From positions 7,849-71,848 of the forward strand of contig CAZBSE010000003.1 in the NCBI GenBank assembly GCA_964494385.1: DNA of 64,000 nt, read 5' to 3'. Within the stretch, counting starts at the first letter, position 1. Each line of letters begins with the position of its first letter. Source of the stretch: an uncultured Actinomycetota bacterium (lineage in GTDB: Bacteria; Actinomycetota; Humimicrobiia; Humimicrobiales; Humimicrobiaceae). Below the pieces are notes generated by a model that made no database searches, had not been told where the DNA came from, and saw only the letters and a program-made list of their open reading frames with translations. This document shows, piece by piece, positions 10,156 to 23,250 of this stretch. Made by a program: the position numbers and the translations under genes.

Positions 10156-11520
10156 TTAGGAGGACATTTTTATTTTGTTTGTAATTTCCTGGATCTGAGC
10201 GTACACGGTCCTGTCTTTATTAATAAGATCGGCTATTTTAGAAACAGCATAAATAACGGTAGAATGATCTCTGTTGCCGAAAGACTTGCCAATTCTGGGG
10301 AGAGAGCTGCCGGTAAGTTCCCTGGAGAGATACATCGACAGCTGGCGGGCGTGAGATATGAATTTGTTCCGCTTGGGACTCATGATATCGTTAATTGAAA
10401 TTGAAAAATATTTTGACACTTCTTTAATTATTGTTTGTATACTTATCTTATGTTCCTTGTCGTCAGGCAGTATATCTTTAAGAATATTAACAGCCATTTC
10501 CAGATCCGGTTTTGATTTAGTTAGCGATGCAAAGGCGACAACCCTGGTAAGCGCGCCTTCAAGCTCCCTGATGTTTTTAGTTATTTTTTCTGCTATAAGG
10601 TTCAGTACTTCATCGGATACGGTTAAATCTTCTCTTTCGGAATATTTCCTTAATATCGCTATTCTGGTTTCGAGGTTAGGCGGTTTTATATCGATTACCA
10701 GACCCCATTCGAACCGGGACCTTAACCTTTCTTCAAGAGTTGATATATTTTTTGGAAGCCTGTCGCTGGAAAGGACAATCTGCCGGTTGGTATCGTGAAG
10801 AGTGTTAAATGTATGAAAAAATTCTTCCTGGCTGGCCTCTTTATCCTCGAGAAAGTGTATGTCGTCCACCAGCAATACATCATTATTCCTATAGCTCTCC
10901 TTAAAAGCATAAATGTTTTTATACCTTAAAGAATTTATAAAATCGTTTAGAAATTTTTCGGCAGAAACATATTTTACGGTCATATTGGGATGAAGCTGCA
11001 GCGTATATTGCCCGATGGCGTGCAGCAGGTGTGTTTTACCCAGGCCCACTCCACCATAGATAAATAAAGGATTGTAAGCTTTCCCCGGCTTCTCGCTGAC
11101 AGCCATCGAAATAGCACGGGCAAAACGGTTTCCATTACCGACCACGAAGGTATCAAACGTATATTTTTTATTGAACACGGAGTTTGTATTTTTTTTATAG
11201 GCATACAACCCTGCACCTTCAGCGGTTTCGTCAACATAATCACCGTAAGGCTCAGAGGCATCTTCGGTATTATCGGGAGAGGTTATAATTTTTATTTTGT
11301 ATTTGCTGTTGGTAGCCTTTTTTATTGATTCAGATAGTAGTTTTGAGTATCTTGATTCAAGCCATTCTCTGGCAAAGTTACTGCCCACCGAAAGGGTTAA
11401 GCAGTTTTTTTTTAGAGATAAAGGAGTTATGTGTTCAAACCAGGCCTTATAGGTGGGAAGATTAATTTTATCCTTTATGTCATCAAGGGTGATTTTCCAG
11501 ATATTTTCAAGGTCTGCCAT
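10156..11520 (-). CDS. dnaA: chromosomal replication initiator protein DnaA
   Basis: It carries the AAA+ Walker A motif GGVGLGKTHLLHAIG and the domain IV DNA-binding signature at the C-terminus. Confidence 0.95.
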   Translation of the reverse strand: MADLENIWKITLDDIKDKINLPTYKAWFEHITPLSLKKNCLTLSVGSNFAREWLESRYSKLLSESIKKATNSKYKIKIITSPDNTEDASEPYGDYVDETAEGAGLYAYKKNTNSVFNKKYTFDTFVVGNGNRFARAISMAVSEKPGKAYNPLFIYGGVGLGKTHLLHAIGQYTLQLHPNMTVKYVSAEKFLNDFINSLRYKNIYAFKESYRNNDVLLVDDIHFLEDKEASQEEFFHTFNTLHDTNRQIVLSSDRLPKNISTLEERLRSRFEWGLVIDIKPPNLETRIAILRKYSEREDLTVSDEVLNLIAEKITKNIRELEGALTRVVAFASLTKSKPDLEMAVNILKDILPDDKEHKISIQTIIKEVSKYFSISINDIMSPKRNKFISHARQLSMYLSRELTGSSLPRIGKSFGNRDHSTVIYAVSKIADLINKDRTVYAQIQEITNKIKMSS

Positions 11521-11532
11521 AATACTCTAATA

Positions 11533-12378
11533 TTAAATATTATTTGAATAATATTCAAGGTATTTTATGCCTTTTTTGGATAATTTTCTTTTACCATTTT
11601 TACTTGGCGTTAAAAATTTAGTTTTTTCCAGATGTATCAGTTCCCTGTACGAAGTTGAGAGGCTAAAGCCTAATTCCTTGGCTATTGTAGAAGGACCGGC
11701 TTCTTCAAGTTCCAGAATTATAAAAAGAATTTTTTTATGCCTTTCGGAAAGAACTTTATAATCGGGCTTATCGAAGCTTTCTGCCGGTGGTTTTGCATCG
11801 GTATCGGCTGCTATCCCGGCGGTTGTTTCACTGCTCGTGTCCGACAGCTTCTGGCTCCTGAACGCTGATTCTAATTTTAGGGATATTACTGTTCCCTTTT
11901 TTATATTATCACTGACATCTATGGATCCTCCGGAAAAGGTGATTGTTTCTTTCACTATGGGAAAGCCGGAGCCTACCCCCCTTATATATTCTTTCATTTT
12001 TTTAGTAGCAGAAGTATATCCGGGAAGAAAGGCTTTATCCTTATCTTCAATCCCCGGACCCTGATCCGATATTATTATATGATTTCCTTTGTCCAGTAGG
12101 GTAATTACGACTTCTCTGAAATCCGCATGTATTAAGTTTTCTATTATTTCTTTTATTATAGTATAGGGAATCTTTCCGCCGATTTCATGGGATAGGCTGT
12201 AGGTTCTCTGAGACGTTTGGTCGATAAAGTTGTTAATGTCGTTAAAGCTAAGGTTAATAATTCTTGGAATACTCCTCATGTTATCATAGACAGCGATCCT
12301 GACCGGTATGTCTGGTTTATCGCGTTCGGGATTATCTGTGGAAGCGATGTCTTTTAAAATGTTATTTGGCTCGGGCAT
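11533..12378 (-). CDS. GHKL/HATPase_c-type ATP-binding domain protein with C-terminal winged-helix DNA-binding domain
   Basis: N-box and G1/G2-box motifs are present (ENLIHADFREV...DQGPGIEDKDKAF...GVGSGFPIV), with a C-terminal wHTH (KILFIILELEEAGPSTIAKELGFSLSTSYRELIHLEK). It lies 12 bp upstream of dnaA on the same strand. Confidence 0.5.
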   Translation of the reverse strand: MPEPNNILKDIASTDNPERDKPDIPVRIAVYDNMRSIPRIINLSFNDINNFIDQTSQRTYSLSHEIGGKIPYTIIKEIIENLIHADFREVVITLLDKGNHIIISDQGPGIEDKDKAFLPGYTSATKKMKEYIRGVGSGFPIVKETITFSGGSIDVSDNIKKGTVISLKLESAFRSQKLSDTSSETTAGIAADTDAKPPAESFDKPDYKVLSERHKKILFIILELEEAGPSTIAKELGFSLSTSYRELIHLEKTKFLTPSKNGKRKLSKKGIKYLEYYSNNI

Positions 12379-12856
12379 GATAAGTAAAGACTATGTTTCA
12401 ATTGTTTACCGCCGGACATATATGAATCCGGTAAACGCTTTTCATTTTCTTTCCAATGCTTTTAAGTTTTCAACAGACTAATAATAATATCTTAGATGAA
12501 AAAAAGCTACTAAATTATATAGTGGGCTGTATAAGTTATGAACATTTGGCATACAATACAGTGGTATTTTTTAAGTTTTCAACAATTTTTTCAACACATG
12601 TGGAAAAACCACAGAAGGTTATGGAAGCCCTTTAAAAAATCACACCATAAAGAATGAAATATCAATATTTTTTTTCAGAAGATATTTTCACAAGAACACA
12701 TGTTTGAAAGTATTAAAATCTAAGACTTTGATAAGGTGCCTTAAAATTAAACTTAATGGTGCTTAAGTGCAAATGCGGGCAACCTTGATATTAGTAAGAT
12801 TAAAATGTATAATCTACTACTTAATTGAGAACAATAACCTAAAAGATAGGCATAAA
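12379..12856. other. candidate oriC region. It is the divergent intergenic space between the rpmH side and the dnaA side and contains repeated DnaA-box-like 9-mers TTTTCAACA (3 copies), TGTGGAAAA and AT-rich tracts.
   Basis: Gene strands switch here. TTTTCAACA occurs at about 12467, 12573 and 12584 and differs from the R-box TTATCCACA at 2 positions. TGTGGAAAAACCACA forms an inverted half-box pair at about 12598. The reverse-complement TGTTGAAAA also occurs in the dnaA-dnaN spacer at about 10096. Confidence 0.45.
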
Positions 12857-12991
12857 ATGAAGAGGACTTTTCAGCCAAACGTTAGAAAAAGAAAAAAAAA
12901 CCATGGTTTTAGAGAAAGAATGAAAACAAAAGCAGGAAGGGCCATAATTGCAAACAGAAGGAAAAAGCAAAGAAAGAAGCTCACTGCTTAA
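12857..12991 (+). CDS. rpmH: 50S ribosomal protein L34
   Basis: [44 protein letters not shown] has the canonical L34 sequence. The track ORF begins upstream, but the ATG at 12857 is the conserved start. Confidence 0.9.
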
Positions 12992-15208: not shown

Positions 15209-16597
15209 ATGTCAGAAGAATACGAAGATACCATAACAGCGATTGGGACCAGGGCAGGCGAAGCTGCTATAGGTATAGTCAAATTAAGCGGAGACAGATC
15301 GATCTTTATAGCGGATAAGTTATTCAAATCAAAAAATAAAAAAAGAATTAAGGATATGAATACATACAGCATGCTTTATGGACATGTGACTGACAGTAAA
15401 GGGAATATAATAGACGAAGTGGTGGTTACTCTTATGAGGAAACCAAAATCCTATACCAGGGAGGACGTTGTAGAAATAAATTGCCATGGCGGGATCATTG
15501 CTACAATAAAGGTAATGGAGCTGTGTATTGAAAATGGAGCAAGAATTGCTGAACCGGGAGAATTTACGAAAAAAGCATTTTTAAACGGTAGAATAGACCT
15601 TTCCCAGGCAGAGGCAGTAATTGATATGGTAAAATCAAAAACAGAACAGTATTTAAAAATTGCTGCTAAAAATTTATGCGGGAACATAAAAAAAGAAATA
15701 GAAAAGCTAAGGGGAATGGTGGAAGACGTAATGGTGCAGCTTGAGGCATCAATTGATTTTGTTGAAGAAGATCTGGAAATTACACCTTACAAAAAACTTG
15801 CAGAGAAAGTCAGTAAAATCAGAGCCGAAGTGGAGATATTAATTGAAGATGAAAAGCAGGGGGAAATTATAAAAAACGGTGTAAAGGCGGCAATAGTAGG
15901 GAAACCTAATGTTGGAAAATCAAGCCTGCTTAATTTACTCTCAAAAAAAGAAAAGGCAATAGTAACTTCCATACCGGGAACGACAAGAGATGCAGTAGAA
16001 GAGATCCTGTATATGGAGGGGATACCCCTGGTCCTTGTGGACACTGCAGGGATAAGAAAAGCAAAGAACACAATAGAAAAGCTGGGGGTGGCAAGGAGTT
16101 TGAAACATATAGACGAAGCAGAATTGATAATACTGGTTCTGGATGGAAATAGAAAAATTGATAAAAAAGATCTTGATATAATTAAAAAGATAAAAGGTAA
16201 AAAAACTATCTGCTGCATAAATAAAATATATCTTAAGCAAAAACTGGAGGCGGGGGCGGTCGATAAATATTTTGATAAAAAATTTATTGTAAGGATATCA
16301 GCATTAAAAGGAACCGGTATACGTAAATTAGAAGAAAAAGTGAAGATGTTAATAATGAACAGCAGCGGTATAAACCTGGAAGAAAAAATAATTGTTAACA
16401 GCAGGCATAAGATTATATTAAAAAGAGTGAAGGATGTTTTAAATAGTGCCGAAGAAGCGATGAGAGATGAGATGTCTGAAGAGTTTCCATCTTATGATTT
16501 GAAAACGGCCTATAGTTTAATGGGTGAAATAATAGGAGAGACAACAGGGAGCGATATTTTAGAAAAAATATTCAGCCGGTTCTGTATTGGTAAATAA
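15209..16597 (+). CDS. mnmE: tRNA modification GTPase MnmE
   Basis: The G-domain motif GKPNVGKSSLLN and the C-terminal CIGK motif are present. It is 462 aa long. Confidence 0.9.
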   Translation: MSEEYEDTITAIGTRAGEAAIGIVKLSGDRSIFIADKLFKSKNKKRIKDMNTYSMLYGHVTDSKGNIIDEVVVTLMRKPKSYTREDVVEINCHGGIIATIKVMELCIENGARIAEPGEFTKKAFLNGRIDLSQAEAVIDMVKSKTEQYLKIAAKNLCGNIKKEIEKLRGMVEDVMVQLEASIDFVEEDLEITPYKKLAEKVSKIRAEVEILIEDEKQGEIIKNGVKAAIVGKPNVGKSSLLNLLSKKEKAIVTSIPGTTRDAVEEILYMEGIPLVLVDTAGIRKAKNTIEKLGVARSLKHIDEAELIILVLDGNRKIDKKDLDIIKKIKGKKTICCINKIYLKQKLEAGAVDKYFDKKFIVRISALKGTGIRKLEEKVKMLIMNSSGINLEEKIIVNSRHKIILKRVKDVLNSAEEAMRDEMSEEFPSYDLKTAYSLMGEIIGETTGSDILEKIFSRFCIGK

Positions 16598-16638
16598 TTA
16601 ATGCCAAAAAACAATACCGCGGGAAGATTTGGCGAAAT

Positions 16639-16654
16639 GTTTCACGTGAAACAA
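16639..16654. promoter_or_regulatory. parS: parS centromere-like site (perfect 16-bp palindrome TGTTTCACGTGAAACA), 43 nt upstream of the mnmG paralog start
   Basis: This is an exact match to the Firmicutes-type parS consensus tGTTtCACGTGAAAca. The parA and parB genes lie 4 kb downstream. Confidence 0.8.
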
Positions 16655-16697
16655 AAAATAATTTAATCGGAATTAAAAATAAGGGCATTAAGAGAAA

Positions 16698-17987
16698 ATG
16701 AATTATAAGGTAATAGTTATAGGCGGAGGACATGCCGGGTGTGAGGCGGCACTGGCATCTGCAAGAAATGGAGTAAAAACTTTACTGATATCAATAAATA
16801 TGGACAGCATTGCCCTTATGCCCTTCGGCGGTACGATAGGCGGAACCGGGAAGGATAAAATAATAAGAGAGATAGATGCTCTGGGCGGTGAGATTTCAAA
16901 AAATACTGATAAGAATTATATAAATATAATAAACGTTCCGGGCAAAGGGGGACGCGCTTTAAAAACTATACAGGCAGTGGTGGACAGAAGAAGATATTTT
17001 TTATCGATGAAGAAAGTACTGGAAGATCAGGATAATTTAGATTTAAGGCAGGGTCTTGCAGTTAGGATAGAAAAGAAATTAAAAAAATTTTATCTATATA
17101 CCAGCGATGAAATAATTTATAGCTGCAGGGCTATTGTTCTATGTACCGGTACTTTTTTAAGAGGAAAAATTTTTTGGGGCAGGAGAATAATTGAGGCAGG
17201 AAGGCAGGGAGAAATATGTTCAAGAAGACTCTCAATAAGTATTGTAAAAATGGGAGTCAAATTAGACAGAATTAGAAGTTATGCCGCCCCATCGGTTGAT
17301 AGGAAAACAATTGATATAAATAGACTGTTAAAGCAGCCATCTGAAAGGTGCCCGGAGTTGTTTTCGCATGAAAGAAAGATTAATGGAAGGGAACAGTTAA
17401 ACAGCTATATAACATTTACTGACAGGAAATGCACCAAATATATTTTAAGAAGCATAAATAAAGCAGGAGATAGTAAAAGATATATATACTCAGAAAAAGG
17501 CGGAGATATAAATTCAATTGAGGGAAGAATTTTAGAAAATAAAAAGAATGAAAATTTTAAGGTTTGTATACAACCGCTGGGGCGGGATACAAATGAAATG
17601 TATTTGCAGGGACTCGAGACTGCATTGCCGGAAGAAGTTCAGATCGGTATGGTAAGAAGGATTAACGGCCTGGAAAATACGGAAATAACCAGACCCGGTT
17701 ATGGTGTTGAGTATAACTATTTAAAACCCTTCCAAATAAAAAATAATCTGGAAGGCAAAAACATAGAAGGGATCTTTTTTGCAGGGAACATAAACGGTAC
17801 GGGGAGCTATGAAGAAGCTGCAGCACAGGGAATTATTGCAGGCATAAATGCTGCCAGAAAATCACGGGGTCTTGGCAGCATGGTTATAGAGAAAAAGTAT
17901 GAATATATCGGTATGATAATAGAAGGTCTTGTTGACAGGGAAAATAATGGGTTAAAATCAAAAGACATTGTTTCACGTGAAACATAA
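16698..17987 (+). CDS. truncated MnmG (GidA) paralog. It has the FAD-binding and insertion domains only, lacks the C-terminal MnmE-interaction domain, and has degenerate active-site motifs.
   Basis: It aligns along its whole length with the N-terminal two-thirds of the downstream MnmG ([40 protein letters not shown]). In this copy CNPSIGG becomes FGGTIGG, so the Cys is lost, and GPRHCPSID is diverged. Homology stops about 14 codons before the stop, and the last codons are read from the parS palindrome. Confidence 0.7.
   Translation: MNYKVIVIGGGHAGCEAALASARNGVKTLLISINMDSIALMPFGGTIGGTGKDKIIREIDALGGEISKNTDKNYINIINVPGKGGRALKTIQAVVDRRRYFLSMKKVLEDQDNLDLRQGLAVRIEKKLKKFYLYTSDEIIYSCRAIVLCTGTFLRGKIFWGRRIIEAGRQGEICSRRLSISIVKMGVKLDRIRSYAAPSVDRKTIDINRLLKQPSERCPELFSHERKINGREQLNSYITFTDRKCTKYILRSINKAGDSKRYIYSEKGGDINSIEGRILENKKNENFKVCIQPLGRDTNEMYLQGLETALPEEVQIGMVRRINGLENTEITRPGYGVEYNYLKPFQIKNNLEGKNIEGIFFAGNINGTGSYEEAAAQGIIAGINAARKSRGLGSMVIEKKYEYIGMIIEGLVDRENNGLKSKDIVSRET
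17969..17984. promoter_or_regulatory. parS: parS site (second perfect copy of TGTTTCACGTGAAACA). It overlaps the last codons of the truncated mnmG paralog and lies 38 nt upstream of mnmG.
   Basis: Same 16-mer as at 16639. Confidence 0.8.
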
Positions 17988-18022
17988 AATGGAATATTGA
18001 GTAATTTAAGAAAGCGGAGATC

Positions 18023-19891
18023 ATGGTTTACGATATTATAGTCGCAGGTGCGGGACACGCGGGTTGTGAAGCTGCACTTGCATCTGCGAGATTGGGATTA
18101 AAAACACTGCTGCTAACCATCAATGTGGATAAGATTGCTTTAATGCCCTGTAATCCGTCAATAGGGGGACTGGGAAAGAGTCAGCTTGTAAGAGAAATAG
18201 ATGCACTTGGCGGGCAGATGGCAAAAACTGCTGACAGGACTTTGATACAGATTAAAATTTTGAATAAAAGCAAGGGTCCTGCGGTCCAGGCTCTAAGAGC
18301 ACAGATAGACAAGAAGGAATATGAAATCGAAATGAAGAGGGTCTTAGAGAATACGGAAAATTTGACCTTAAGGCAGGGTACTGTAAAGAAAATATGCGTA
18401 AAGGATAATTCAGTAACCGGAGTAGAAGTAGAAAGCGGTATACGTTTTTCGGGGAAGGCTGTAATCATAGCCACTGGTACTTTTTTAAGGGGAAGAATAA
18501 TCATTGGAAAGAAAGATTATCCTGCGGGCCGCATGGGTGAATATCCTGCCATGAATCTTACGGGGAATTTAATAAACCTTGGGTTTAAAATAAGCAGGTT
18601 CCAAACCGCAACCCCACCCCGAATCGATAAAAGAACCATAAATTTTTCAAAAACTGCTGTACAGTATGGTGAAAGACAATATTTAAGCTTCTCTTTCTGG
18701 GATAAAGAGAAGATTCATGATAGCATCAAGTGCTACCTTACATATACCAATGAGAAGACTCATAAGGTGATTGCTGAAAATATTGAGCAATCTCCTATAA
18801 AATCCGGTATGATCAGCTCACATGGTCCTAGGCACTGTCCCTCCATAGACAGGAAGGTAATTAATTTTCCAGAAAAGAAAAGGCACCCGGTTTTTATTGA
18901 ACCAGAGGGGCTTTTTACAAATGAGATGTATCTGCAGGGATTAACCACGAGTATGCCCATGAAAGTGCAGCAGAAGATAATAAATACAGTGGAGGGATTG
19001 GAAGATGCAAGAATAATAAGACCGGGTTATGCCGTGGAATATGATTACATAATTCCAAATCAATTGAATTTTACTCTGGAATCTAAAATAGTTGAAAACC
19101 TGTATTTTGCAGGGCAGATAAATGGCACTTCGGGGTATGAGGAAGCTGCGGCACAGGGACTGATTGCGGGAATAAATGCAGCATTGAAAGTAATTTCCAG
19201 ACCTTCGTTAATTCTAACAAGAGATAATAGCTATATAGGAGTCTTGATAGACGATCTTTTGACAAAAAAACTTTTGGAGCCTTATAGGATGTACACTTCA
19301 AGGGCAGAATATAGACTGGTATTGCGTTCCGATAATGCCGATATAAGATTAAGCGGATTTGGAAATGATATCGGTCTTATAACTGACAGACAGTACAGCG
19401 GAGTGATTAAGAGAGAGAAAGAAATTAATAAATTGATTAAAAAGCTAAAAGCAAAAGTTTTAAATCCTGGCAAGGCTAACAATTCCGTTCTGCAGAGAAT
19501 GGGCATAAAACCAATTGATGCCCCCCTGAGCATTTACGGGCTTTTAAAGAGGCCCGGAGTAGATATAAAAAATACAGTGTGTTTGCTTAACAGCGGGAGT
19601 GGTGATTTTAGCAGAAATATTTTAAAACAAGCGGAGATCAGAATAAAATATGAGGGCTATATAAACAGACAATTAAGTGAAATTAAAAAATTGGAAAGCC
19701 TGGAGAAATATAATCTTCCGGAAGATTTTGATTATTATAAGATAATGGGGCTGGCTTATGAGGCCCAGGAAAAGCTTGCTAAAATTAAGCCCAATACTCT
19801 GGGGCAGGCTTCAAGAGTCGCAGGGGTATCTCCTGCGGATATTTCGATACTGATGTTAAACTTAAAAGGTAAATTAAAAACGGGTGCTTGA
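18023..19891 (+). CDS. mnmG: tRNA uridine 5-carboxymethylaminomethyl modification enzyme MnmG (GidA), full length
   Basis: The 622-aa protein has [10 protein letters not shown] at the N-terminus, the motifs [11 protein letters not shown] and GPRHCPSID, and the C-terminal helical domain. Confidence 0.9.
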
Positions 19892-20625
19892 ATTTGGAAA
19901 TCGATAATATTTTGAGATTGTCGTTTCAAAAACTTGAAATAAAATTTTCTGCAGATCAACTTGAACAGGTAAAAAAATATTTAAACCTGCTTTATAAATA
20001 TAATAAAATGATAAATCTTGTAGGAACTAAGGATAAGGAAGGCATACTCATAAGGCATTTTCTGGACTGTCTTTCAATATTAAAATATGAAGGATATTTT
20101 TTTTATGGTACTGATTTCGTAGAAAAAATCCTCGATGCAGGAACAGGTTCAGGGCTGCCGGGTATTCTTCTATCTATTTTTTTAGAGGACAAATTATTTT
20201 ACTTGCTGGATAAAACACAAAAGAAGATAGATTTTTTAAAGCTTATGGTAAAAGAGCTGGGACTTAAAAATGTTACAGTAGTCAAAGGGAGAGCAGAGGA
20301 GCTCTCAAAAATAAATTCTTACAGAGAAACTTTTGATATAGTTCTGGCAAGAGCTGTGGCGAAATTTAATATATTAAGCGAATTTGTAATTCCATTTTGC
20401 AGAATAAATGGTAGAATTATATTTTATAAAGGAAGAAATATTTTTAATGAATTGGAAGAGAGCAGAGGAGCCGTATTGAAACTCGGGGGGAAGGTAGATA
20501 GTTTGTTAGAGATAGAAGTTCCATATCTTAATGAGTTTAGAGCTTTTTTAATAATCAAAAAAACAGAGAAGTCTCCCGAGCAGTACCCCCGAAAATTTCA
20601 AATAATTAAGAAGAAGCCATTGTAG
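19888..20625 (+). CDS. rsmG: 16S rRNA (guanine527-N7)-methyltransferase RsmG (GidB)
   Basis: It carries the SAM-binding motif [12 protein letters not shown]. It overlaps the mnmG stop by 4 nt. Confidence 0.85.
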
Positions 20626-20758
20626 AGGGCATTGTATTAATGCATTATAATGTATAATTGTCTAAAAGCATAAATGGGGGGATGTGCTATTATTGATGAG
20701 GTTTATAGATATGGTTATCAAGAATAGAAAAACAAGAGAAACCATAAGGAAAGGATAT

Positions 20759-21520
20759 ATGGGGAGGATAATTGCTATTACAAATCAAAAAGGCGGTGTA
20801 GGGAAAAGTACAACTGCAGTAAATGTAGCTGCTTATATGAGCTCTTACGGCTATAAGACTTTGCTTATAGATCTTGACCCTCAGAGCAATTCAACCAGTG
20901 GATTGGGTGTAAATCCTGCTGATATCAAAGAATCGGTTTATGAAGTTTTAATACATGAAAGGGACCCCAATGAGATAATCTTAAATTCTTCATATAAAAA
21001 TCTTAAAATCCTGCCCTCTTCCATACAGCTTGCCGGTGCGGAAGTAGAACTGGTTGCCAGCTTAAAGAGGGAGTTCAAGTTAAAAGAAGCGGTAGATAAA
21101 ATCAAAAAGGATTATGATTTTATCCTGATTGACTGCCCGCCGGCTCTGGGACTTTTGACCATTAATGCTCTAACTGCAGCAAGAGAGGTCATTATTCCCA
21201 TACAATGTGAATATTATGCCCTGGAGGGTCTGGGCCAGCTTTTAAATACCATAAACCTGGTTAAAAAAAATCTTAATAATAAATTAAAGATAAAGGGAGC
21301 CATAATGACTATGTACGATCCAAGGATAAAACTGGCCGAGCAGGTAATCGAGGAAGTCAAAAATTATTTTTCGGAAAAGGTTTACAGGACAGTCATTCCC
21401 AGAAATGTGAGGCTAAGCGAGGCACCAAGTTATGGCAAACCTATAGTAGAATATGACCCTAATTGCAAGGGCGCAGAGGCCTATAGCAATTTTACGAAGG
21501 AAGTGATAAAAAATGGTTAG
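20759..21520 (+). CDS. parA: chromosome partitioning ATPase ParA/Soj
   Basis: It has the deviant Walker A motif KGGVGKSTTAVN. The track ORF starts at 20684, but the Met at 20759 gives the canonical length of about 253 aa. Confidence 0.85.
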   Translation: MGRIIAITNQKGGVGKSTTAVNVAAYMSSYGYKTLLIDLDPQSNSTSGLGVNPADIKESVYEVLIHERDPNEIILNSSYKNLKILPSSIQLAGAEVELVASLKREFKLKEAVDKIKKDYDFILIDCPPALGLLTINALTAAREVIIPIQCEYYALEGLGQLLNTINLVKKNLNNKLKIKGAIMTMYDPRIKLAEQVIEEVKNYFSEKVYRTVIPRNVRLSEAPSYGKPIVEYDPNCKGAEAYSNFTKEVIKNG

Positions 21521-22370
21521 GAGGGGATTAGGCAGAGGTCTTAATGCATTGATTCCAAGCATAGATAAATCCTCTGAAGGTGAATCAAATACAATAGTTG
21601 AATTATCATTGGATAGAATTGTTCCAAATAAAAACCAGCCCAGGAATATATTCAATGATGATTCATTAAATGAACTGGCTGAATCAATCAAGAAATTCGG
21701 GATCATCCAGCCTATTGTGGTAAGAAGATTGAGCGGGGGAGATAAATATGAAATCATCACCGGAGAGAGAAGATACAGAGCTGTTAAAAAAATCGGTATC
21801 AATACCATTCCCTCAATAATAGCCAGAGATATTGACGATAGAACTTCTCTGGAAATGGCTCTGATAGAAAACTTGCAAAGGGATGACTTAAAACCAATGG
21901 AAAAAGCTTATACATTTAAGCAGCTTATAGATGAATTTAAAATTACTCATGACCAGCTTTCAAAAAGAATTGGTAAGAGCAGGGCAACAATAACTAATTT
22001 CCTGAGGTTGCTTTCTCTTCCTGCAGAAATCCAAAAGTTAATAGATGAAGGAAAATTAAGCGAAGGTCATGCAAGATCATTACTTCCCATAGAAGAAAGC
22101 GAGAGAGTAAAAATTGCTAATCTTATTGTTAAAGAAGGCTTAAGCGTAAGGGATGTGGAGAGAATAGCAAGCAGAAAAAATGAGCGCAGCAGGGAGATAA
22201 AAATTAGAAAAGTGGAGCAGCTGAGCAAGCTCCCGGAAATATCCAGGAGAATGACCGAGTATCTAAATGTTCCTGTAAAAATAACTATGGGGAGAAAAAA
22301 AGGAAAGATAATAATAGAGTTTGGCTCTATAAAGGGCTTAGAAAGAGTCGTGGATAAAATATTTGGTTAG
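21513..22370 (+). CDS. parB: chromosome partitioning protein ParB/Spo0J
   Basis: GERRYRAVKK matches the ParB box, and a HTH follows. It overlaps the parA stop. Confidence 0.9.
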   Translation: MVRRGLGRGLNALIPSIDKSSEGESNTIVELSLDRIVPNKNQPRNIFNDDSLNELAESIKKFGIIQPIVVRRLSGGDKYEIITGERRYRAVKKIGINTIPSIIARDIDDRTSLEMALIENLQRDDLKPMEKAYTFKQLIDEFKITHDQLSKRIGKSRATITNFLRLLSLPAEIQKLIDEGKLSEGHARSLLPIEESERVKIANLIVKEGLSVRDVERIASRKNERSREIKIRKVEQLSKLPEISRRMTEYLNVPVKITMGRKKGKIIIEFGSIKGLERVVDKIFG

Positions 22371-23250
22371 AAAACCTGATTGGCTTAAGAAAAGAATAAA
22401 TCTGAATAATTTAAATATCAGCAGGGTAAGAAACCTCATTTGCAGCCTACAACTTAATACTGTTTGCCAGAGTGCAAAGTGTCCCAATATTTTAGAATGT
22501 TTCAGTAAAAAAACGGCAACTTTTATGCTGATGGGCGATGTCTGTACCAGAAATTGCGGTTTCTGCGGAATAAAAACGGGAGTACCGAAAGCTCCAGACC
22601 AGGAGGAACCTTACAGAGTGGCAAGGGCAGTAAGAGAAGCGGAGTTGAAATATGTGGTTATCACTTCGGTGACCAGAGATGACCTAAGCGACGGCGGTAG
22701 CTCACATTTTGCAAAAACTGTAATTGAGATAAGAAAACTTAATCCCGGTATAAGAATAGAATGTTTGATCCCTGATTTTAAAGGGGATATCAGGAATCTG
22801 GAAGTACTTGTGAAGCAGCATCCTGATGTGTTAAGTCATAATATGGAAACAGTTAAAAGAAATTACGCTAAAGCCAGGAAAGAAGCAGATTATAAGGTAT
22901 CACTTAATATACTGAAATCAGCAAAATCGATAAAAACTTATATTTATACTAAATCCGGATTTATGCTGGGCCTTGGAGAAACCAGAAAGGAAATAATACA
23001 ACTGCTTTCAGATTTAAAAAAGGCGGGCTGTGATATTGTGACTATGGGTCAGTACCTCAAGCCTTCCGGATCAAATCTTTCGGTAGAAAAATATTACAGA
23101 CCGGAAGAATTTGAGGATTTAAAAAAACTGGCGGAAAGTTTTAATTTTAAAGCGGTGATGAGCGGTGTATTTGTGAGGTCTTCTTATGGTGCAGAAGCTA
23201 TAATGAAAAAAATTTTGGAAGAAAAAGAAGTATGCAACCAATTAAAATAA
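22363..23250 (+). CDS. lipA: lipoyl synthase
   Basis: The radical-SAM CTRNCGFCGI motif is present, together with an N-terminal auxiliary-cluster Cys motif. Confidence 0.9.
   Translation: MVRKPDWLKKRINLNNLNISRVRNLICSLQLNTVCQSAKCPNILECFSKKTATFMLMGDVCTRNCGFCGIKTGVPKAPDQEEPYRVARAVREAELKYVVITSVTRDDLSDGGSSHFAKTVIEIRKLNPGIRIECLIPDFKGDIRNLEVLVKQHPDVLSHNMETVKRNYAKARKEADYKVSLNILKSAKSIKTYIYTKSGFMLGLGETRKEIIQLLSDLKKAGCDIVTMGQYLKPSGSNLSVEKYYRPEEFEDLKKLAESFNFKAVMSGVFVRSSYGAEAIMKKILEEKEVCNQLK

Follow-up and report, generated by a model that had tools for sequence, protein, structure and literature searches.

The window analysed here, a 64 kb stretch of DNA, carries two copies of a 16-bp palindrome among genes of the replication and partition machinery. 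The features that bear on these palindromes are the following (no strand is given for the parS sites):

10156 to 11520, minus strand: dnaA, which marks the origin region
11533 to 12378, minus strand: ORF of 281 aa with a HATPase_c domain and no other recognisable domain
15209 to 16597, plus strand: mnmE (TIGR00450, 398.7 bits), the gene directly upstream of site 1
16601 to 16637, plus strand: promoter-like block abutting site 1 (putative promoter)
16638 to 16653, palindrome: parS site 1, exact TGTTTCACGTGAAACA, intergenic, between mnmE and mnmG'
16698 to 17987, plus strand: mnmG', a short MnmG paralog of 429 aa with the GIDA/FAD domain only
17969 to 17984, palindrome: parS site 2, exact TGTTTCACGTGAAACA, at the 3' end of the mnmG' ORF
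18023 to 19891, plus strand: mnmG, canonical and full-length, 622 aa (TIGR00136, 834.7 bits, over the cutoff)
19888 to 20625, plus strand: rsmG (gidB; TIGR00138, 150.4 bits)
20684 to 21520, plus strand: parA (soj), a ParA-family Walker ATPase (PF13614, 234 bits; ParA-family NCBIfam matches)
21513 to 22370, plus strand: parB (spo0J), 285 aa, the presumed cognate parS-binding CTPase clamp (TIGR00180, 194.6 bits)
22363 to 23250: lipA (lipoyl synthase), overlapping the end of parB by 8 nt

The complete order is dnaN-dnaA / rpmH-rnpA-yidD-yidC-jag-mnmE-parS-mnmG'-parS-mnmG-rsmG-parA-parB, then lipA, with rpmH, rnpA, yidD, yidC, jag and mnmE all on the plus strand; the rpmH...mnmE-mnmG-rsmG-parAB arrangement is typical of origin regions. 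At about 10-12 kb of the window, the GC skew switches sign. Together, dnaA, the gene order and the skew switch identify this part of the window as the chromosomal origin region, in agreement with a preliminary description of the same DNA that had placed the palindromes in the ori domain. The sites lie 5-6.5 kb from dnaA, about 4-6 kb from the GC-skew switch and 2.7-4 kb upstream of parA-parB, the nearer site being 2.7 kb away. DnaA-box-like sequences are enriched in the intergenic stretch 12379-12860, and consensus DnaA boxes form no striking cluster in the window, so that the position of oriC is approximate only. A search of the whole 64 kb against Rfam at the gathering score matched no family and detected no riboswitch, sRNA or rRNA. 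Note that the HATPase_c ORF ends 13 nt upstream of the dnaA start, a position that it also occupies in 10/10 relatives, and that parB is followed by lipA in all the relatives, which is an unusual and conserved downstream neighbour for par genes.

The 16-mer TGTTTCACGTGAAACA is a perfect palindrome present in exactly two copies. With the base composition of the window, 2.4e-5 exact copies would be expected by chance, so the two observed are far beyond chance. No third site of this type occurs within the 64 kb at up to 3 mismatches, which extends the earlier statement that the window holds two exact copies and no further one. The coordinates given at that time were exact for site 2 (17969-17984) and one base off for site 1, which runs from 16638 to 16653 and not from 16639 to 16654. 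Site 1 begins 40 nt past the mnmE stop and stands 44 nt ahead of the mnmG' ATG at 16698, while site 2 ends 38 nt ahead of the mnmG ATG at 18023; the spacing of 38-43 nt to the mnmG starts described previously was essentially right. Site 2 had also been said to be embedded in the final codons of a truncated mnmG paralog, and the sequence reads in this way: the last five codons of mnmG' are GTT TCA CGT GAA ACA (VSRET), followed by TAA. The mnmG' homologs P0005, P0009 and P0046 likewise terminate in VSRET. Outside the 16-mer, the DNA around the two sites does not align to each other.

Both sites match perfectly the universal parS consensus TGTTNCACGTGAAACA, which is pan-bacterial (review PMC7022226). 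The match to a ParB-binding consensus reported in the preliminary description is thus correct, and its designation as Firmicutes-type is too narrow, since the consensus is shared across bacteria and the closest genome is labelled Actinomycetota.

Conservation of the two sites in the lineage

As relatives of the locus we used the contigs encoding ten mnmG' homologs, which provided loci of 13-21 kb each. All ten share the same gene order from dnaN to lipA, and each of the syntenic loci (10/10) contains exactly two perfect parS sites, identical at 16/16 positions and placed at the same two positions, the first 13-47 nt upstream of the paralog start and the second at or just past the paralog end. 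Only one additional parS-like site was seen in the 10 loci, with 2 mismatches, in L001.

Moreover, metagenomes were scanned with the pattern TGGCGA-N2-3-parS. The raw matches included many unrelated high-GC contigs that fitted the pattern by chance; these were removed by filtering for the GC content of the low-GC lineage and for the upstream block, which left 25 distinct site-1 variants of the lineage. An exact second site was present in 20 of the 21 variants with enough downstream DNA, and the remaining one has a second site with a single mismatch at +1859. In the relatives, the second site lies 1331-1880 nt downstream of site 1. In two metagenome contigs, L080 and L140, the second site (+1842/+1843 from site 1) is followed 37 nt further on by another exact parS (+1879/+1880); two sites per genome is therefore not a strict rule in the lineage.

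The surroundings of the sites have changed considerably in these genomes. When the sequences were anchored on the sites, pairwise identity was 1.00 for both 16-mers, compared with 0.32-0.42 for the 46 nt on each side of site 2; around site 1, mean pairwise identity was 0.51-0.69 upstream vs 0.37-0.39 downstream. The mnmG' proteins of the relatives are 49-80% identical to that of the window, with a dS of 0.40 for the closest pair and >1.3 for another. Judged from these alignments, neutral survival of 32 nt unchanged in all these genomes is not credible, and both sites must therefore be under strong purifying selection as DNA. The idea that the palindromes are selected as ParB loading sites, put forward before on the basis of the window only, is supported at the sequence level by this comparison, in which the 16-mers stay perfect across a lineage whose surrounding DNA has diverged. 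Note that none of the 16 positions varies, not even the four central ones, which would be the loop of a hairpin. This invariance of the loop bases points to a protein-DNA site and not to an RNA structure.

In the other phyla sampled, parS-like sites near mnmG occur at other positions or are absent (the scan of genome contigs returned mostly canonical MnmG from other phyla). Since the same placement is not found there, the layout in which two sites bracket the paralog appears specific to this lineage.

The ParB protein and the centromere reading

The ParB of the window has an N-terminal LGRGL peptide, which by its sequence is the ParA-interaction peptide, a GERRYRA CTP-binding box at residue 84, an ENLQR motif and a helix-turn-helix domain. 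Among proteins of solved structure, those nearest to it are Myxococcus ParB, Thermus Spo0J, Helicobacter ParB, B. subtilis Spo0J and Caulobacter ParB. The Noc proteins of Firmicutes are ParB paralogs that recognise a related 16-bp palindrome, the NBS, which differs from parS at positions 1 and 6, whereas the sites described here have the parS sequence. Jalal et al. showed that four residues set the preference for parS or NBS; these are R173, T179, A184 and G201 in Caulobacter ParB, and Q, K, K and R at the equivalent positions of Noc (PMC7383237). We take 173 and 201 as the specificity-switching pair, because PMC7383237 links Q173 and R201 with the two bases by which NBS departs from parS. When aligned to the Caulobacter DNA-binding domain (6S6H), the window ParB has R157, F163, S168 and G185 at the four positions; unlike Noc, it has R and G at the switching positions and no lysines at the permissive ones. 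By sequence, this residue pattern is of the parS type and not of the Noc type. In addition, the NCBIfam Noc model scored the window ParB below its cutoff (230.9 bits vs 315). We therefore rejected the identification of the palindromes as Noc binding sites, with parS-consensus DNA, R/F/S/G in ParB vs Q/K/K/R in Noc, and this sub-threshold Noc score.

Our results make it very likely that the two palindromes are chromosomal centromere (parS) sites, the pair probably deriving from a tandem duplication of a [parS + mnmG] unit. A role as chromosomal ParB loading sites is supported by the sequence data, in which every sequence-level feature expected of such sites is present. Dimers of ParB, encoded 3.5 kb downstream, would recognise each palindrome through their helix-turn-helix domains; once it had bound CTP, ParB would form closed sliding clamps and spread across the origin-proximal region. 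The partition complex built there would be moved by ParA and would load SMC-type condensin. ParB binding, clamp loading and the role in segregation are inferred here by analogy with the well-studied ParABS family.

The likeness to that family is close. As in the chromosomal ParABS systems of B. subtilis (Spo0J/parS), Caulobacter (ParB/parS) and Thermus (Spo0J), we find a TGTTNCACGTGAAACA palindrome in an origin-proximal position, with parA-parB adjacent, a ParB with a CTP box and parS-type residues, a small cluster of sites and one site within coding sequence. In B. subtilis, a parS lies inside the spo0J coding sequence. Two sites are few compared with some model species, yet inside the known range. 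What differs from these systems is that the two sites bracket a degenerate MnmG paralog, and that they keep their places at the mnmE/mnmG'/mnmG junctions across the whole of an uncultured low-GC lineage. The sites themselves are ordinary, textbook parS elements that are well conserved, and the known picture of ParABS is unchanged. Their identification locates the centromere of this uncultured low-GC lineage (labelled Actinomycetota) and anchors the origin region of its MAGs.

The promoter-like block at site 1

The DNA immediately 5' of site 1 is itself conserved. In the window it consists of ATGCCA (-35-like, 16601-16606), a 17-nt spacer, AAGATT (-10-like, 16624-16629) and TGGCGAAA (16630-16637), so that the -10-like hexamer ends 8 nt before site 1. 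The consensus of the lineage, from 25 distinct sequences in which the spacing of the hexamers is fixed, is aTGnCA-17 nt-nAtAtT-TGGCGAAA(A)-parS, or in short form aTGnCA-17-nAtAtT-TGGCGA. In its sequence the block looks like a sigma-70-type promoter with a start point at parS or just ahead of it. The block shows that some of the conservation around site 1 has a cause other than parS, probably a promoter. An inverted-repeat operator around site 1 was considered and rejected, as the T-run before GGCG varies independently of the middle base of TGnCA. The simple promoter scan that we used listed a promoter over site 2 of the window (AAGACA-17-TAAAAT); its hexamers are unconserved in the relatives, and we do not claim it.

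These observations raise the question of whether site 1 has a dual role, as centromere and as an operator at which ParB would compete with RNA polymerase or block it, with autoregulation of mnmG'-mnmG-rsmG-parA-parB as the outcome. We regard this as possible and propose it only tentatively; it would extend the centromere explanation and not exclude it. Should the block be a promoter, the footprint of the polymerase would overlap with ParB sitting on site 1, which would open a route to feedback on the downstream genes, parAB among them. In support of this, the block lies directly 5' of site 1 in all 25 sequences, with a likely start within a few bases of parS, and it is better conserved than the DNA on the other side of the site; moreover, the downstream genes through parB are co-oriented and separated by short gaps. 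Repression by ParB at an intergenic parS is documented in Pseudomonas aeruginosa (PMC7022226), although in B. subtilis the loss of ParB leaves the expression of parS-adjacent genes unchanged (PMC7022226). Other results argue against a dual role: the window hexamers (ATGCCA, AAGATT) are weak and fell under the threshold of the promoter scan, the spacer is unusually conserved too, which a plain promoter does not need, and site 2 has no comparably conserved flank.

There are precedents with which this arrangement can be compared. In plasmid systems with a ParB-operated par promoter, such as that of KorB, the centromere/operator overlaps the par promoter and ParB represses it; here the putative promoter block adjoins site 1. 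The gidAB-parAB region of P. aeruginosa, with its parS1-4 cluster, resembles our locus in having gidA/mnmG, gidB/rsmG, parA and parB near oriC. In Pseudomonas, a promoter upstream of gidA drives a gidAB-parAB operon (PMC13438810); the regulator described there for the gidA-upstream promoter is DnaA, whereas here a parS abuts the putative promoter block. How the levels of ParA and ParB are controlled in chromosomal systems is still poorly understood, and a possible coupling of ParB occupancy to parAB expression could be tested at the block adjoining site 1. A bolder version, in which site 1 would sit in a lineage-wide promoter/operator coupling ParB loading to transcription and mnmG' would be kept mainly to carry and space the second site, we consider unlikely.

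Much less probable still is that the palindromes work at the RNA level, as hairpins of terminators or attenuators, or that they bind a CACGTG-recognising regulator other than ParB. Both sites stand just upstream of genes and the palindrome can form a stem of 6 bp closed by a 4-nt loop, but the resulting hairpin is weak (-4.7 kcal/mol) and has no U-tract on the sense strand, which is A-rich there. The terminator scan did not list either site, and an intrinsic terminator was rejected on these grounds. An RNA would, moreover, tolerate compensatory changes, whereas the absence of any variation at the 16 positions is the signature of a protein-DNA contact. Likewise, no RNA element was accepted at site 1: Rfam gave no match for 16500-18100 at E<=5, and RNAalifold on the site-1 region of 10 sequences returned a weak hairpin (GCCAAA/TTTGGC) with no compensatory changes, that is, no covariation, and with the pair broken in three of them. 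As for another regulator, the palindrome is not that of Noc, and the ParB of the window does not have the Noc residues.

The mnmG' paralog and the origin of the pair

The gene between the two sites, mnmG', scores under the MnmG equivalog cutoff; it has the GIDA domain only and does not have the C-terminal domain, which is the MnmE-binding domain. It is 41% identical to the canonical MnmG over 416 residues, and with site flanks that cannot be aligned this bears out the substantial divergence between the two gene copies noted previously. In E. coli MnmG, C47 and C277 are required for cmnm5U formation (PMC10723064). Both catalytic cysteines are replaced in the mnmG' product of the window, with MPFGG vs MPCNP and GDINSIE vs RHCPSID. 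Other short forms without the two catalytic cysteines, besides that encoded at 16698-17987, are P0003, P0009, P0016, P0019, P0027 and P0096, while the full-length P0046 and P0069 keep both cysteines. The family comprises proteins of 415-484 aa together with forms of about 600 aa, and its members come from metagenomes and from MAGs that carry the label Actinomycetota; among species-representative genomes, the nearest is an 'uncultured Actinomycetota bacterium' with 79% mnmG' identity. Its dN/dS of 0.19-0.30 indicates purifying selection. The description of mnmG' as a truncated paralog is therefore right as to its shortness and not as to a recent truncation, since this is a conserved family under selection. 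From its sequence, mnmG' probably encodes a pseudoenzyme or a protein with a new function.

Deeper-branching members of the lineage suggest how the pair was formed. They have a full-length upstream copy, as exemplified by P0046 (601 aa) in L027, which retains the MnmG C-terminal domain and both cysteines (MPCNS, RYCPS) and whose frame closes with ...ENVSRET* within parS, stopping a few codons before canonical MnmG does. Stepwise loss of the C-terminal domain is seen in the forms of 473-480 aa and of 425-450 aa, the latter including the 429 aa of the window. The pair most likely arose by an old tandem duplication of [parS + mnmG], which is the simplest history and fits the full-length P0046. 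The duplicated unit would have begun shortly upstream of parS and ended close to the 3' end of mnmG, and the duplication junction would have fused the reading frame of the upstream copy to the second parS. The upstream mnmG copy would then have eroded, losing the catalytic cysteines and the C-terminal domain, with both parS retained.

That the palindromes are passive leftovers of this mnmG duplication with no function of their own has almost no chance of being correct: each site does precede an mnmG copy at a similar distance (44 and 38 nt), as a duplicated unit would have it, but a neutral 16-mer would not stay intact between gene copies that share 41% identity and flanks that cannot be aligned, the sites are 100% conserved in relatives where the neighbouring non-coding DNA is ~32-42% identical and dS runs from 0.4 to >1.3, and the sequence is exactly the ParB consensus with a cognate-type ParB encoded nearby. 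As the relatives are not near-identical strains (49-80%), these conservation data effectively refute it. With the palindromes read as centromere sites, the locus provides a natural example of a DNA-binding site that stays letter-perfect while the gene hosting it decays, with the catalytic cysteines and the C-terminal domain lost.

Finally, the coding overlap at site 2 varies within the lineage. In some relatives the mnmG' ORF stops 4-330 nt ahead of the second parS, so that the overlap found in the window is incidental as far as the conservation of site 2 is concerned. In the closest relative (L006, 10137-10277; 79%), 125 nt separate the end of the paralog ORF from parS, and the distance from site to site is 1464 nt, compared with 1331 nt in the window. 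The mnmG' ORF of the window has probably been fused to parS by a deletion of ~133 bp or by a frame change.
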